From the sequence record SRR20825006_720: a stretch of 48,192 nt of DNA; one strand, 5' to 3'. The notes under the pieces are model-generated. The model was not told where the DNA came from, made no database searches, and worked only from the letters and a program-made list of their open reading frames with translations. Position numbers and translations under genes: made by a program. Position 1 is the first letter of the stretch. Each line of letters starts with the position of its first letter. This document shows, in pieces, positions 3,179 through 38,970 of the stretch.

Positions 3179-4039
3179 ATGAGGCAATTAAAGATTACCA
3201 AACAAATTACAAACAGGGATGCCAAATCATTGGAAAAGTATTTTCAAGAAATTTCCAAAATTGATTTGATAACAGCAGAAGAAGAAGTAGAATTGGCCAG
3301 AAGAATTCGCGAAGGTGATCAAGTTGCTCTCAATAAATTGGTAAATGCCAACCTGCGTTTTGTGGTGTCCACCGCAAAACAATACCAAGGCAGTGGCCTA
3401 CGGCTTTCCGACTTGATCAATGAAGGGAATATTGGTTTGGTGAAAGCCGCCAAACGTTTTGATGAAACCAGGGGGTTTAAATTTATCTCCTACGCGGTTT
3501 GGTGGATCAGACAATCCATATTGCAGGCCATTTCACAAAACTCCCGTATGGTACGGTTGCCTCTAAATAAGATTGGGGAAATCAGTAAAATAAACAAAGT
3601 GTATTCCTCTTTGGAACAAATGCACCAAAGACCTCCGAGCGCGGCTGAAATAGCCAACGAGCTTGATACCACTTCCACGAAAGTGAAACTGGCCATGAAA
3701 AATTCGGGGAAACACTTGTCCATGGATGCGCCTTTTCAGGAGGGCGAATCCTCCAACCTCTACAATGTCGTGGCATCAAAGAACACCTCAAGCCCCGATG
3801 ATAAAATGATCAAGGATTCCCTGAGCACGGATATCAGCCAAGCGTTAAAAACCCTCCCCGACCGCGAGAGCGAAGTCATCCGTTTGTATTATGGTCTGGG
3901 ACAACGGGCCCCAAAAAGTCTGGGCGAAATAGGGGAACTGTTTGATATTACCCGGGAACGTGTACGTCAAATCAGGGAAAAAGCCATCCGAATGCTGAGA
4001 AAACGTTCGCACAATCAGGTTTTACAAGCCTATTTATAG
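3179..4039 (+). CDS. RNA polymerase sigma-70 factor, RpoD/SigA family (divergent paralog)
   Basis: MRQLKITKQ start, [27 protein letters not shown] (regions 2.1-2.4), TRERVRQI (region 4.2). Lacks region 1.1. Confidence 0.95.
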   Translation: MRQLKITKQITNRDAKSLEKYFQEISKIDLITAEEEVELARRIREGDQVALNKLVNANLRFVVSTAKQYQGSGLRLSDLINEGNIGLVKAAKRFDETRGFKFISYAVWWIRQSILQAISQNSRMVRLPLNKIGEISKINKVYSSLEQMHQRPPSAAEIANELDTTSTKVKLAMKNSGKHLSMDAPFQEGESSNLYNVVASKNTSSPDDKMIKDSLSTDISQALKTLPDRESEVIRLYYGLGQRAPKSLGEIGELFDITRERVRQIREKAIRMLRKRSHNQVLQAYL

Positions 4040-33378: not shown

Positions 33379-34890
33379 TTACATTTTGGCCGCAAACATT
33401 TTGGAAATACTCGAACGCAATTTACGTTCATAATCCTCCTCCAGCCACTCTTTGTAGTTTTTTGTGTTGTTCATGATGCAGTAGGAATACTGCTTTACTC
33501 GGTACTGGATTTCATCTTTGAGCTCTTTGGCCAAAATTCGGGCATCGAATACATCCTCACTGTTTTCCACGCATATTTGGGCGTGCTGCTCAATACTTTT
33601 TTCAAGGACCAATTTTGATTTTTTGCCCTGCGCGAAAATCTTTTTATATTCTTCTTTTACATCAAAGGTGATGTTGTTCGAGTTACTGAATTTGGCACGA
33701 AGCTCATCTGGCATCTCATAAACAAAATCACGCTCGATTTCCTCATCATTTTTAATGTTCTCCAAATAAAAGTCAGGAAAAAGAAAAATTTCCTGCCAAT
33801 CCACCGGTGCATCCCAAGGGCCAAAACGTGCAATATTGTTACCCATATCGATTACGTTGAACTCATTCTTGTTCGGAAGAACCCTAGAACCTCTACCGAT
33901 CATTTGGAAATACAGGGTAAGTGACCTTGTGGCCCTGTTCAAAATAATGCTCTCAACCGTAGGTTCATCAAAACCTGTGGTAAGAATACTCACAGATGTC
34001 AGGATAGCATCCGGTGTTTCTGCAAACCACTCGAGGATATCCTTTCGCTCCGTGGCCGTGTTTTTATTGTCCAAGTGCCTAACGTTATAGCCTGCCTTTT
34101 TAAAGGTCTCGTAAACGTATAGGGAAGTGTTGATACCGTTGTTAAAAATCAATGTTTTTGTACCCTTGGCTATTTCTTCGTATGCTGTGAGCAGTTTGCC
34201 GAGCATACTGTGGGCACTGTAGAATTCATCGGAAGATTTTACGGTATAGTCCCCATTGATGCCCAGTTTTAGGGTACGTAGGCTGACATCGTAATTGTAA
34301 AGATTGGCCTTGGCCAAGAAATTTTTATCGATCAACGATTGTATGGACTCCCCAATGATCAAATGCTTGTAATTGTCCTTCATCGGGAGTTTAATGTTGG
34401 AACTCAACGGGGTTGCCGTTACGCCCAAAATGGTGGACTTATCAAAATATTTAAAGAGTTTCCTAAAGGAATTGTAGTGGGCTTCATCGATAATGACCAA
34501 GCCAATATTGTTGATTTTGACTTTTTCTTCCTGTAAACGGTTGTTCAAGGTTTCCACCATGGCAACAAAGCACATATAATCGTCTTGATCATAAAGCTCT
34601 TTAACTTCACTGTTGATGACTTTGTTGGCTACTCCAAATCCCTTGAGCATTTTGGAAGTTTGTTTGCTAAGTTCTATCCGGTGTGTGAGTACCATTACCT
34701 TTTTTCCGGTCTGCTCAATAAACCTGCGGGTGATTTCAGAAAACACCACTGTTTTTCCGCCTCCGGTTGGTAGTTGGTACAAAATGTTGGTACCCTCCGG
34801 AAGCTCGTCCAGTTGGGTGAAAATTTTGTTCAGGTCTTCTTCCTGATAACCGTATAATGTTTTCTTCTTGACTTTTTTGTTTACCTCCAA
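33379..34890 (-). CDS. DEAD/DEAH-box SF2 helicase (RadD-like)
   Basis: LPTGGGKT, IIDEAH, TATP, TGFDEP, QMIGRGSR. TTG start. Confidence 0.93.
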   Translation of the reverse strand: MEVNKKVKKKTLYGYQEEDLNKIFTQLDELPEGTNILYQLPTGGGKTVVFSEITRRFIEQTGKKVMVLTHRIELSKQTSKMLKGFGVANKVINSEVKELYDQDDYMCFVAMVETLNNRLQEEKVKINNIGLVIIDEAHYNSFRKLFKYFDKSTILGVTATPLSSNIKLPMKDNYKHLIIGESIQSLIDKNFLAKANLYNYDVSLRTLKLGINGDYTVKSSDEFYSAHSMLGKLLTAYEEIAKGTKTLIFNNGINTSLYVYETFKKAGYNVRHLDNKNTATERKDILEWFAETPDAILTSVSILTTGFDEPTVESIILNRATRSLTLYFQMIGRGSRVLPNKNEFNVIDMGNNIARFGPWDAPVDWQEIFLFPDFYLENIKNDEEIERDFVYEMPDELRAKFSNSNNITFDVKEEYKKIFAQGKKSKLVLEKSIEQHAQICVENSEDVFDARILAKELKDEIQYRVKQYSYCIMNNTKNYKEWLEEDYERKLRSSISKMFAAKM

Positions 34891-34927
34891 AGGGAATGCG
34901 TTATGGATTGTTAAATAAAAAACCCTA

Positions 34928-34935
34928 CAAAATTA
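34928..34935 (-). promoter_or_regulatory. -7 promoter TAATTTTG of the helicase gene, inside an inverted repeat
   Basis: TAnnTTTG match flanked by AAAAAACCC / GGGTTTTTT. Confidence 0.55.
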
Positions 34936-35130
34936 GGGGTTTTTTGCGCTTGAGACCAATCCTTCTTGGCTTTTCTATCAAAATTGTATTAACAATTAAA
35001 ATATCACTCCTTTTTTTGTGAATAGCTTATCTGCTCATAACATTTTGATAACAATAACATTTAGGACTTGGAAAAATGCATATTATAATGTATAATGATA
35101 GTTTATAACACTAGTAAACCAGATACAAGA

Positions 35131-35994
35131 ATGAGGCAGCTAAAAATCATCAAACAGGTCACGAACCGTGAATCCAAATCACTTGACAAATACTTGCAGG
35201 ATATCAGTAAAATCGATTTGATCACCGCGCAGGAAGAAGTTGAGCTAGCACAGAAGATCAGGGCCGGAGACCAAGCTGCTTTGGAAAAATTGACCAATGC
35301 AAACCTAAGGTTTGTGGTATCCGTTGCAAAACAGTACCAGAACCAAGGGTTGAAGCTCCCAGATTTGATCAATGAAGGAAATGTTGGATTGGTAAAAGCA
35401 GCCAAGCGTTTTGATGAAACCCGTGGGTTTAAATTTATTTCTTATGCTGTTTGGTGGATTCGCCAATCCATTCTGCAAGCTTTGGCGGAGCAGTCCCGTG
35501 TGGTACGTTTGCCATTGAACAAAATTGGGTCAATAAATAAAATAAAAAAGACATTTTCCTATCTAGAGCAAGCCCATGAGCGTCCGCCGTCCCCAGAGGA
35601 GATTGCCAAAGAATTGGACATGACGGTTTCCGAGGTGAAGCAATCATTGAAAAATACAGGTAGACACGTATCTATGGATGCGCCATTAAAGGAAGGTGAA
35701 ACTTCCAATCTATACGATGTTCTTAATGCCGGGGACTCTCCAAAACCTGACAAAGGGCTGATGCATCAGTCTCTGAACACAGAAATAAACAGGGCTTTGG
35801 ATACATTATCGCCAAGAGAAGCCGATGTGGTACGCCTGTATTACGGTATAGGTGACCAACCATCCATGACCTTGGAGGAAATTGGAAGCACTTTCGATTT
35901 GACCAGGGAACGTGTACGTCAGATTCGGGAGAAGGCAATCAGAAAATTAAGACATACATCAAAAAGTAAAATTTTGAAGTCCTATCTTGGATAA
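35131..35994 (+). CDS. rpoD: RNA polymerase sigma-70 factor, RpoD/SigA family (close to the Bacteroidota primary sigma, possibly a second copy)
   Basis: [51 protein letters not shown]. Start at the ATG at 35131. Confidence 0.93.
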
Positions 35995-36014
35995 GTCAAG
36001 ACAGTCAATAAATA

Positions 36015-36049
36015 GAAAAGGGGACGTTTTTTTACAACATCCCCTTTTC
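36015..36049. terminator. Bidirectional terminator between the sigma gene and the micropeptide genes
   Basis: GAAAAGGGGA...TCCCCTTTTC arms. Confidence 0.8.
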
Positions 36050-36068
36050 CATGATATACACTTAAACA

Positions 36069-36170
36069 TCATTGCTTGCTCAAAAGACTAATATCAAAGT
36101 CGGTGAGCATGTCTTTCAAATCTTGAATAAAATTCAAGTAAGCGGCGTTTTCTTTGTTAGGGTTTTTCAT
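36069..36170 (-). CDS. Unannotated micropeptide B (33 aa) MKNPNKENAAYLNFIQDLKDMLTDFDISLLSKQ
   Basis: Hand-translated. Paralogous to 36198..36296, TTACC-ATG start context, ends 20 nt before the terminator. Confidence 0.7.
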   Translation of the reverse strand: MKNPNKENAAYLNFIQDLKDMLTDFDISLLSKQ

Positions 36171-36197
36171 GGTAACAAGTTTTGGGTTGTTGGCTAA

Positions 36198-36296
36198 CTA
36201 TAGGTAATCAAGTTCGGCAAGTTCGTTTACCGTCAAAATTTCGTTTAGTTCTTGTAAAAAGGCTAAGTACTCTTCTCCGTAGGTATCGTATAACAT
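36198..36296 (-). CDS. Unannotated micropeptide A (32 aa) MLYDTYGEEYLAFLQELNEILTVNELAELDYL
   Basis: Hand-translated. Shares YLxF[LI]Q[ED]Lx[ED][IM]LT with peptide B and has the same TTACC-ATG context. Confidence 0.7.
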   Translation of the reverse strand: MLYDTYGEEYLAFLQELNEILTVNELAELDYL

Positions 36297-36410
36297 GGTA
36301 ATCTTTGGTTTTGGTTCGGGGGTTTTTTAGGTATAACGCAGTTTCACACATAACATTATGTTACTTTCACAAATTGTGGTGAACATATCAAATTATGGAG
36401 TGAAATATTT

Positions 36411-36764
36411 TTATTTCATATTTAAAATGTCGAGTTCAACTTCAAAATCAAGTTCGTTGTCTATTTTGCTCGGCCTAATATTGAACTCGTCATAAATAAA
36501 ACAAAGGTTCATGGGCAATCTTCGTCGTTCCGCATCGGACAACACGCCCAATTTTGACTGCAGTTCGTTTTTAACGGCAAAAGCCTTGTTACTGATTTTC
36601 GGATTGTGATGGGATTCCAATTCAGAAAGGAAGGGAATCTCTTTCCTATCCCCTACCTTCAACATTTCATCCAATAACATTAATTGGCACTCCAAGTCTT
36701 CCGTATGCTGGAACAACGGATAAAATATGCTTTGGAGGTATTCGGGCAGTTGGTTGTTTTCCAT
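36411..36764 (-). CDS. Hypothetical protein with a HEAT-like helical pair (117 aa)
   Basis: LLDEMLKVGDRKEIPFLSELESHHNPKISNKA resembles a PBS/HEAT repeat. Starts 12 nt after the upstream gene. Confidence 0.7.
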   Translation of the reverse strand: MENNQLPEYLQSIFYPLFQHTEDLECQLMLLDEMLKVGDRKEIPFLSELESHHNPKISNKAFAVKNELQSKLGVLSDAERRRLPMNLCFIYDEFNIRPSKIDNELDFEVELDILNMK

Positions 36765-36776
36765 CTTGACTGTGTA

Positions 36777-37556
36777 TTAGATTGCGCGGAATATTTCCAT
36801 TTCAAAATCTATTTGCTCTTGAATGCGTGGATATTCCTGGAGAAATTGATCGTACAAAAAGTCAAGGTGCTTTTTATCCCTATCCGTTTTGCACAACCTT
36901 GAAATTTGTTGGGTCACTTCCAAAAGCCCTGATGTCTTCATCATACGCAACGAAGGCATTATTTTTTGACAGGAAAGCTCGAGCTCTGTATAATTTTCGT
37001 TTATTAGATTGACTTTGGCACTTCCGACAAACTCAAAAATGTTTTGTTTGAACATGCGCACCAACTCTTCCAACAGTTCAATTTGCCCCATGCAATCCTC
37101 CAAAACGGGTTGGAGATCAATCTTTTGGGAAGAAAAACCAGCTTGAAGGCTCTTCTCAATAAATTCAAAATCGGTAGACATACGTTCTGTGTTTTTATTC
37201 TGATCTTGAGGCTTCTCTTGTATGTTCTGTATCCTTTTTTTAATCTCTTCCACAATACTTTTTTGTGGTTCAGAAAGATTTGTATCCTCCAAAGACTTTA
37301 AAAGCATCAAAATTTCACTATCATCTGGGGCAGTAAACGATTTGCTATCAGAGCCTTGGATGCCTACATTTTTGTATAGGTCTTCGAGCTGCTTCATTTC
37401 GGAAATCCCAAAAACTTTGCTTTCAAGTCCAAACTTGAACATTTCAAAAGTCTTTTTAAGTTCTCCAGCCTCAACTACTCCCAATTCTTCATAAGAAAAA
37501 GAACTCAAACCTATTTCAAGCTTTTCCAGATACGTTAACAATTCGCGTGTTCCCAA
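36777..37556 (-). CDS. Protein with a C-terminal Hpt-like domain lacking the phospho-His
   Basis: IDLQPVLEDCMGQIELLEELVRMF...SCQKIMPSLRMM matches the Hpt layout (AHK[IL]K.S) with Gln at the His site. TTG start. Confidence 0.72.
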   Translation of the reverse strand: MGTRELLTYLEKLEIGLSSFSYEELGVVEAGELKKTFEMFKFGLESKVFGISEMKQLEDLYKNVGIQGSDSKSFTAPDDSEILMLLKSLEDTNLSEPQKSIVEEIKKRIQNIQEKPQDQNKNTERMSTDFEFIEKSLQAGFSSQKIDLQPVLEDCMGQIELLEELVRMFKQNIFEFVGSAKVNLINENYTELELSCQKIMPSLRMMKTSGLLEVTQQISRLCKTDRDKKHLDFLYDQFLQEYPRIQEQIDFEMEIFRAI

Positions 37557-37683
37557 TTTTTTGCGTTAATGGTTATTAATCACATTAAAAATGTCGATTA
37601 AACTGAGGGATTACAATTTATTGTTCCGTAGCATTCGGATATTGTTGTCAAATTGCGTTATTTGTATGTGTAAAAAACCAACC

Positions 37684-38970
37684 ATGAAATATTTTTATTT
37701 ATTCCTTAGTATTACCCTGCTCATATCTTGCGGGGAGAAAAAAACCGAAACCAAAGAAGAAACCTTGGTAGAAAAAGCACAGAGAATCCACGATTCCGTA
37801 ATTACGATTGATACGCACGATGATATCAACGTTCAAAATTTTACGGACAGTATCAACTACACTCAGAATTTGGATACCCAAGTAAACATACCCAAAATGA
37901 AAGAGGGAGGTCTCGATGTAGCATGGTTAGTAGTGTACACAGGTCAAGATAACTTAACAACGGAGGGTTATGCCAAAGCATCTGAAAATGCAATCTCAAA
38001 ATTCGAGGCTATCCACAAACTTTGTGAGGAAATAGCTCCTGACGAGATTGAGTTGGCCCTGACCTCTGAAGATGTTAGAAGAATTGTGGCCGCAGGCAAA
38101 AAAGTGGCCATGATCGGTGTGGAAAATGCCTACCCAATTGGCGAAGACCTTTCTAAAATTGAAGAATACCAAAAGCGTGGTGCCCGATATATGTCCTTGG
38201 CACACAATGGCCATAGCCAATTGAGCGATTCCAATACAGGGGAGCAAGACAGTGTTTGGCTTCATAACGGATTGAGCGACCTTGGCAAAGAAGCGGTTGC
38301 AGAAATGAACCGTGTTGGAATGATGATCGATGTTTCCCACCCATCAAAAGAAGCGATGAAACAAATGATCGAGCTTACCAAAGCTCCGATAATCGCATCG
38401 CACTCATCGGCAAGAGCACTTTGTGGCCATAGCCGTAATCTTGACGATGAGCAATTAATGTTGATGAAGGAAAACGGAGGTGTTGTACAAACCGTAGCTT
38501 TTAGTTCTTACTTGAATACCGAGAAGCATGAAGCACGTTCCGCCTACATGTCGGAGGTGTACAAAAAAGTGGCAGATTCCTTGGGTCTTGCTTGGTACGA
38601 GCGCTCCCAATTTGGTTCGTTGACCGATGAACAGCGCGAAGAGTTCTTTGCCAATTACGGAAAAATCAGAAATATCGGCGAAGAATTGGCCGAAACCGAC
38701 CCCAACGTGCCACCTGCGGTGAACGTATCGGATTTTGTGGACCATATCGACTATATGGTGAAATTGATAGGTATCGACCATGTGGGCATTAGCTCCGATT
38801 TTGATGGCGGAGGCGGTATTGAAGGATGGTCGGATGCATCCGAAACCTTCAACGTAACCTTGGAACTCGTAAAAAGAGGCTATACCGAAGAAGAAATTGC
38901 CAAATTATGGGGCGAAAATCTATTAAGGGTATTGGATGAAGTTCAAGCGGTCGCCAAAACAATGAACTAA
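37684..38970 (+). CDS. M19 membrane dipeptidase lipoprotein
   Basis: Start revised to the ATG at 37684, lipobox LISC, DTHDD, GVENAY, IDVSH, ASHS, SDFDGGG, GENLLRV. Confidence 0.95.
   Translation: MKYFYLFLSITLLISCGEKKTETKEETLVEKAQRIHDSVITIDTHDDINVQNFTDSINYTQNLDTQVNIPKMKEGGLDVAWLVVYTGQDNLTTEGYAKASENAISKFEAIHKLCEEIAPDEIELALTSEDVRRIVAAGKKVAMIGVENAYPIGEDLSKIEEYQKRGARYMSLAHNGHSQLSDSNTGEQDSVWLHNGLSDLGKEAVAEMNRVGMMIDVSHPSKEAMKQMIELTKAPIIASHSSARALCGHSRNLDDEQLMLMKENGGVVQTVAFSSYLNTEKHEARSAYMSEVYKKVADSLGLAWYERSQFGSLTDEQREEFFANYGKIRNIGEELAETDPNVPPAVNVSDFVDHIDYMVKLIGIDHVGISSDFDGGGGIEGWSDASETFNVTLELVKRGYTEEEIAKLWGENLLRVLDEVQAVAKTMN

Follow-up and report, generated by a model that had tools for sequence, protein, structure and literature searches.

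Bacterial small proteins of fewer than 50 amino acids have been catalogued by comparative genomics, by ribosome profiling and in smORF catalogues, one example being the global microbial smORF catalogue (PMC11364881). The two proteins described here, which we call A and B, resemble other conserved small proteins in that they have fewer than 50 codons, belong to a size class often skipped in annotation, can be told by a conserved reading frame and a low dN/dS, and carry no signal peptide. They are unlike other small proteins in that their family is unnamed, is covered by neither Pfam nor NCBIfam and returned no match in the literature, in that they form a fixed tandem pair of paralogues, and in that A is constrained like a primary sigma factor. 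The precursor pairs of two-peptide bacteriocins and RiPPs provide another point of comparison, as A and B are likewise two adjacent paralogues of about 30 codons with a common conserved motif. Unlike those pairs, A and B have no Gly-Gly leader or Cys and no processing, export or immunity genes among the five neighbours that were scanned, and they occupy a fixed position in the core genome and are conserved over their whole length.

Small acidic proteins and domains are also known to bind the transcription machinery, region 1.1 of sigma-70 and Gp2 of phage T7 being examples. A is similarly very acidic (-8 in 32 residues) and lies beside a primary-type sigma factor without a region 1.1 match, but no sequence or structural similarity was found. 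The pair and the sigma gene converge and are transcribed separately, and the adjacency was examined within one genus. A further likeness is to the end of the J domain (DnaJ/Hsp40), since the N-terminal YDTYGEE of A resembles the YD.YGEE seen when protein P0098 is aligned with DNAJB1. A contains no HPD, however, and neither A nor B gave a Pfam DnaJ (PF00226) match at E ≤ 1. P0098 itself is a protein of 94 aa that consists of a complete eukaryote-type J domain and the last 27 residues of A, joined at YDTYGEE. Only one copy of it is known, from a contig of 889 bp, and since its J domain is most like eukaryotic DNAJB1 it is probably an assembly chimera. As a singleton of this kind, on so short a contig and with a eukaryote-type J domain, P0098 was set aside as a clue to the origin of A.

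The locus lies in a stretch of 48,192 nucleotides from record SRR20825006_720, referred to here as the window, which on the evidence of the relatives of a 117-aa neighbouring protein is from a Flagellimonas genome (Muricauda and Allomuricauda being other names). Gene A occupies positions 36198..36296 on the minus strand and consists of 32 codons followed by TAG, its product being MLYDTYGEEYLAFLQELNEILTVNELAELDYL. Gene B, its paralogue, occupies positions 36069..36170 on the same strand and consists of 33 codons followed by TGA, with the product MKNPNKENAAYLNFIQDLKDMLTDFDISLLSKQ. Both were defined from the ORF list and the comparative alignment, and retranslation gave the coordinates, strand and peptides that an earlier reading made from the sequence alone had assigned to them. 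That sequence-only reading had also placed the two genes 27 nt apart and had noted CCAAAAC...TTACC ahead of both ATG codons with adenine at -3, and both observations are correct. The spacer (36171..36197, minus strand) contains the translation-initiation region of B, with adenine at -3 and a run of adenines at -10 to -13.

Other parts of the earlier description stood up less well. Both peptides had been described as acidic, which is true of A, with 8 acidic residues, no basic residue, 5 aromatic residues and a net charge of -8, and is barely true of B as encoded in this window, with 5 acidic and 4 basic residues and a net charge of -1. They had also been described as amphipathic helices, yet their amphipathicity did not exceed that of shuffled sequences (p = 0.10 for A and 0.20 for B; 0.64 and 0.12 in a second test). 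Both peptides are without Cys, signal peptide or hydrophobic segment. The genes had been presented as missed, and according to the same reading they are absent from the ORF track of the window; in some public genomes, though, the two genes do have entries, as ‘hypothetical protein’. An in-frame ATG further upstream lengthens A or B to 50 codons in certain species (L001 and L003, at 3414-3566; L053, at 3573-3725), and gene callers that choose the longest ORF then report the longer forms, for example P0085 and P0184. As many as 99 ORFs of at least 20 aa overlap the surrounding 6.5 kb. Since small ORFs are this frequent by chance, the presence of A and B alone proves nothing, and it is the comparative data that carry the case.

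These data came from a single scan of species-representative genomes with the 117-aa family, which yielded 53 loci and, with the window, a set of 54 sequences. In all 54, A is intact at 32 codons and B at 33 codons, both with ATG starts, and indels are confined to positions outside the two ORFs. The non-coding lengths vary in the same sequences, from 19 to 32 nt for the A-B spacer, from 87 to 187 nt for the upstream region and from 61 to 283 nt for the downstream region. The 48 distinct DNA sequences of A encode just 12 distinct peptides, and the variable sites at codon positions 1, 2 and 3 number 11, 2 and 29 of 33; A is nearly invariant along its full length, the C-terminus included. For B, 51 distinct DNA sequences encode 34 peptides, with 18, 14 and 33 of 34 sites variable at the three codon positions. 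Pooled Nei-Gojobori estimates of dN/dS, which were made within one genus and from pairs that are not independent, were 0.034 for A and 0.11 for B as compared with 0.18-9 in the other five frames; despite this dependence between pairs, the pattern leaves no ambiguity. Only the proposed frames are free of stops in 54/54 sequences, the best alternative frame being open in 25/54. The sequence-only reading had attributed the pair to selection on protein sequence, and third-position variation, low dN/dS, fixed ORF lengths and the restriction of indels to the flanks all bear this out. It had also named frameshifts, stops or a dN/dS near 1 in orthologues as findings that would speak against it, and the 54 sequences gave the opposite result. 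Taken together, this comparative evidence indicates that A and B are real protein-coding genes whose reading frames are kept by strong purifying selection on the amino-acid sequence.

The strength of this selection can be judged against the neighbouring genes in the 52 sequences that contain all five. The value of pN was lowest for the sigma factor (0.029) and A (0.032) and rose through B (0.123) and the 117-aa gene (0.148) to 0.225 for the 259-aa gene that precedes the 117-aa one, from which it follows that A is under as tight a constraint as the primary sigma factor next to it. In the same sequences pS was 0.54 for A and 0.60 for B and was higher, at 0.73-0.81, for the three neighbouring genes. 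These lower values suggest that some extra constraint on codons or on the mRNA/RNA may act as well.

The proposal that A and B are tandem paralogues had been based on a conserved core in which 6 of 13 positions were said to be identical. The actual count is 7/13. BLASTP of A against B produced no alignment. The Smith-Waterman local score of 40 was well above that of shuffled sequences (mean 18.4, sd 3.9; p = 5.5e-4 from 20000 shuffles), and comparison of the A and B alignments with hhalign gave a probability of 91.6% and an E-value of 8.1e-7 over 22 columns. Distant forms of B approach the core of A more closely. The relation between the two thus holds in both the shuffle test and the profile-profile comparison, and on this basis A and B are paralogues. 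A relationship of A or B to the 117-aa or the 259-aa neighbour was considered and rejected, the corresponding hhalign probabilities being 0.1-0.6%.

Relatives of the pair are found outside Flagellimonas. A joint A+B profile recovered 38 representatives of 29-94 aa at E ≤ 1e-3 in a search of 1.84 billion proteins, and in a larger collection a profile headed by a natural 50-aa form recovered 314 clusters at E ≤ 0.01. Members with a named source belong to Flagellimonas, Maribacter, Cellulophaga, Croceitalea and Psychroserpens, and the 120 matches listed bear no protein name other than ‘hypothetical protein’. In two annotated genomes the pair carries neighbouring locus tags (SAMN05216294_2511/_2512 and GGE08_003174/_003175). 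Such entries and adjacent tags indicate that the genes are called in some annotations yet are uncharacterised. The 158 small proteins collected comprise 129 of the B type (in 109 cases with a length of exactly 33 aa), 20 of the A type, 6 that contain both and 3 left unclassified by the patterns used. Neither A nor B had a match above noise in Pfam, NCBIfam, PADLOC or PHROGs, the best match of the family profile among PDB sequences had an E of no better than 0.77, and the ESM Atlas held no usable match for either peptide. No copy of A was detected on plasmids or phages by tblastn, and literature searches with the peptide strings and locus tags of the pair returned nothing.

The 6 proteins that contain both are natural read-through fusions of A and B (P0081, P0120 and P0130-P0133). 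In five of these the stop codon of A has become Q and in one W; the spacers are in frame and of several different kinds, the Met of B is retained, and the B halves match the form of B that occurs outside Flagellimonas. All six lie on short contigs (421-892 bp for the four lengths listed, P0081 and P0130-P0133), and sequencing error is a possible source, although the six differ from one another. The fusions show that the order A then B extends beyond Flagellimonas, and they suggest that A and B act jointly. Within Flagellimonas the spacer is in frame in 28/54 sequences and both in frame and stop-free in 20/54; with so few in frame, programmed read-through is not conserved in the genus. A prediction of the complex of A with B, in which the alignments were not used, scored 0.02 against a mark of 0.34, a result that speaks neither for binding nor against it.

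Adenine is present at -3 in 45/54 sequences for gene A and in 34/54 for gene B, and at both -11 and -12 of the B start region in 54/54. In Flavobacterium johnsoniae adenines at -3, -12 and -13 have been described as positive determinants of initiation (PMC6847099). The start contexts of A and B, as read from the DNA, fit the Bacteroidota rules set out in that study, with runs of adenines near -12.

Upstream of A, the alignment revealed a conserved block (36333..36405, minus strand) that may be the promoter or a regulatory region of A and B. It contains direct repeats of the TTTCAC type (TTTCAC[CA]AC) at 36397-36405 and 36376-36384, 21 bp or two helical turns apart, a -10-like CATAAT at 36355-36360 that lies 17 nt past TTCACC and so completes a sigma-70-like match (TTCACC-N17-CATAAT), and a CGTTAT element at 36333-36338, all on the minus strand. 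The strict pair of repeats, exactly 21 bp apart, is present in 36/54 sequences. ATA[AC][TG][CG]T[TA] is found 55-64 nt upstream of the A ATG in 54/54, with ATAAT[CG]T in 53/54, and in loci L001-L053 the block is situated at about 3360-3470. The canonical -7 box of Bacteroidota is given as TAHHTTTG in the same source (PMC6847099), and this box was found ahead of A in 0/54 sequences. The arrangement of repeats and -10 element is unlike the usual Bacteroidota promoter, and it may form a site for a regulator or an alternative sigma factor.

Downstream of B the sequence-only reading had placed a terminator, and a fold test confirmed it. The hairpin, at about 36012..36052, has a 17-bp stem and begins 17 nt past the B stop codon, and it would serve both A-B on the minus strand and the convergent sigma gene on the plus strand. 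Its folding energy is -25 to -29 kcal/mol (z = -5.5, with 0/200 shuffles as stable), and its stem is conserved across the aligned intergenic regions. A simple terminator scan did not pick up a hairpin at 36012-36052. Insertions of about 130-210 bp were seen between the B terminator region and the sigma gene in three species, at loci L012 (3700-3899), L041 (3702-3981) and L051 (3671-3949), where the intergenic lengths are 542, 624 and 598 nt as opposed to about 410 nt elsewhere.

A and B are the last two genes in a run on the minus strand that begins with genes for proteins of 259 aa and 117 aa, and the order and spacing of the four are alike in 53/53 loci. Pfam searches of five neighbours identified the sigma factor, a helicase and an M19 dipeptidase and left the 259-aa and 117-aa proteins without assignment. 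The 117-aa hypothetical protein, the upstream neighbour of A (36411..36764, minus strand), has 64 relatives at 66-98% identity, which, where an organism is named, come from Flagellimonas, Muricauda or Allomuricauda or from unclassified Flavobacteriaceae/Bacteroidota. Its AF2 model has a pLDDT above 90 for residues 11-70 and of 73 overall, and the best PDB fold matches (E 0.46 or worse) are mainly designed armadillo proteins, giving weak support for a small helical-repeat (ARM/HEAT-like) structure. The C-terminal 30 residues of this protein are conserved and are modelled with low confidence. An identity as a degenerate J domain was rejected, as the fold matches were armadillo/HEAT-like only.

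The 259-aa protein is the first of the run (36777..37556, minus strand). In the alignment its TTG start is conserved, its N-terminal 65 residues are very conserved and a linker is variable. The AF2 model (pLDDT 85-95 for residues of about 170-240) predicts an HPt-like four-helix bundle at the C-terminus, for which the top fold match was 7c1i HptB (E 0.053, TMt 0.64), with ZmHP2 and the HPt of ArcB also recovered. These HPt matches had a probability of 1.00 and a TMt of about 0.6 with E-values of only 0.05-0.3. Pfam gave no Hpt match, and one orthologue is named ‘Hpt domain-containing protein’. HPt proteins possess an H..KG motif with the phospho-accepting His in the second helix. At what would be the corresponding place the 259-aa protein has an invariant Q197, within ‘CQK..PSLRMMK’, and it may be a pseudo-HPt in which Q197 stands where His is expected. 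On the other side of the pair lies the gene for an RpoD-type sigma factor of 299 aa (35095..35994, plus strand), with regions 1.2, 2, 3 and 4 recognised by Pfam and NCBIfam and no match to region 1.1 in either. It is convergent and adjacent in 53/53 loci and lies about 400 nt downstream of the 117-aa gene loci.

Several other explanations of the pair have to be considered alongside this evidence. The conserved region might be non-coding sequence with incidental ORFs (part of a small RNA, of a 3' UTR or of a terminator region in common with the sigma gene), an idea prompted by its position between two convergent transcription units beside a conserved hairpin and by a synonymous diversity somewhat below that of the neighbouring genes. 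We give it almost no credence, as the three-base periodicity falls exactly in the proposed frame, where dN/dS is 0.03-0.11 and not the 0.18-9 seen elsewhere, and the ORFs stay intact in 54/54 sequences while their flanks carry indels; there were, in addition, 0 Rfam matches at E ≤ 1 in 34500-38000 and no excess folding in 36060-36410 (z = -0.75). Regulatory leader peptides or uORFs, for which the act of translation matters and the peptide sequence does not, would also be short intergenic ORFs with good initiation contexts. No gene follows B on the same strand, however: the terminator comes 17 nt past B, and beyond it the next gene runs in the opposite direction. It is also the amino-acid sequence itself that is strongly selected, and this role is scarcely credible for A and B. 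A and B might also be made as precursors of peptides that are secreted and perhaps modified, for instance bacteriocins of the two-peptide kind, RiPPs or signals, with the conserved core as a leader for a processing enzyme. Such precursors are typically encoded by tandem paralogues of about 30 codons, and a gene for an M19 dipeptidase lies 1.3 kb away on the other strand. Against such an origin stand the absence of both Cys and a Gly-Gly motif from A and B, the lack of a modifying enzyme, a peptidase-domain ABC transporter or an immunity gene among the five scanned neighbours, the fixed position in 53/53 loci, the absence of PADLOC or PHROGs matches and of plasmid or phage copies of A, and the near invariance of A to its C-terminus, which is unlike the variable cores of these precursors. 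We regard it as very unlikely.

More deserving of attention, and in our judgement still improbable, is a four-gene signalling module in which A and B would be partners or regulators of the HPt-like 259-aa and the helical-repeat 117-aa proteins. HPt-like and armadillo-like folds bind helices and peptides, and the two neighbours are modelled as having folds of these kinds. The four genes lie on one strand in an order and spacing that are constant in 53/53 loci, and no terminator-like site is present between the 117-aa gene and A. On the other hand, named relatives of the 259-aa and 117-aa proteins are from Flagellimonas, Muricauda and Allomuricauda, with a few entries identified at family or phylum level only (64 matches, and the best 120 of 162, from a word-based search that can miss distant relatives), whereas A and B occur in at least four further genera. 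Moreover, between the 117-aa gene and A there is a distinct promoter-like block that is conserved, and neither upstream protein comes near A in degree of constraint.

The explanation that best accommodates the locus as a whole, to which we assign a probability of about 85%, is that A and B are coding tandem paralogues of an uncharacterised family of about 32-33 residues in marine Flavobacteriaceae. Transcription would start at the conserved block immediately ahead of A, which is promoter-like but not of canonical type, or else A and B would be co-transcribed with the two upstream genes; in either case the A-B transcript would end at the shared hairpin. Translation is likely to proceed without a Shine-Dalgarno sequence, via the A-rich contexts with adenine at -3 that are usual in Bacteroidota. 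Both peptides are predicted to remain cytoplasmic, since neither contains a signal peptide, a hydrophobic stretch or Cys. A and B are adjacent and in the same order throughout the Flagellimonas loci and are fused in some lineages outside the genus, and they may act together, probably as a hetero-complex that binds a conserved cellular protein. As far as can be judged from its composition, with 8 acidic, 0 basic and 5 aromatic residues, A may present a docking or mimicry surface. Our best guess at function, which we infer, is a cytoplasmic micro-protein pair that acts on a conserved partner. It is conceivable, if decidedly improbable, that A and B together make up a hitherto unrecognised two-chain micro-protein, one that accompanies a core machine of marine Flavobacteriaceae as a near-universal accessory. 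In its boldest form the idea centres on A, which is invariant, has a net charge of -8 and is encoded next to rpoD: A would work in trans as an acidic module of the Bacteroidota primary sigma factor or RNA polymerase and would take over what region 1.1, missing from this sigma factor, does in other bacteria.

Annotation systematically under-reports small proteins, of which few are known from Bacteroidota, and A and B provide a clean case that could be recognised from sequence alone. They represent a new family for annotators to model, spread over several genera of abundant marine Flavobacteriaceae. The pair also offers a compact experimental target, as each of the two genes is about 100 bp long, fusions of them occur in nature and the promoter is probably a dedicated one. 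The strength of the constraint on A suggests that its partner in these bacteria is an important one.
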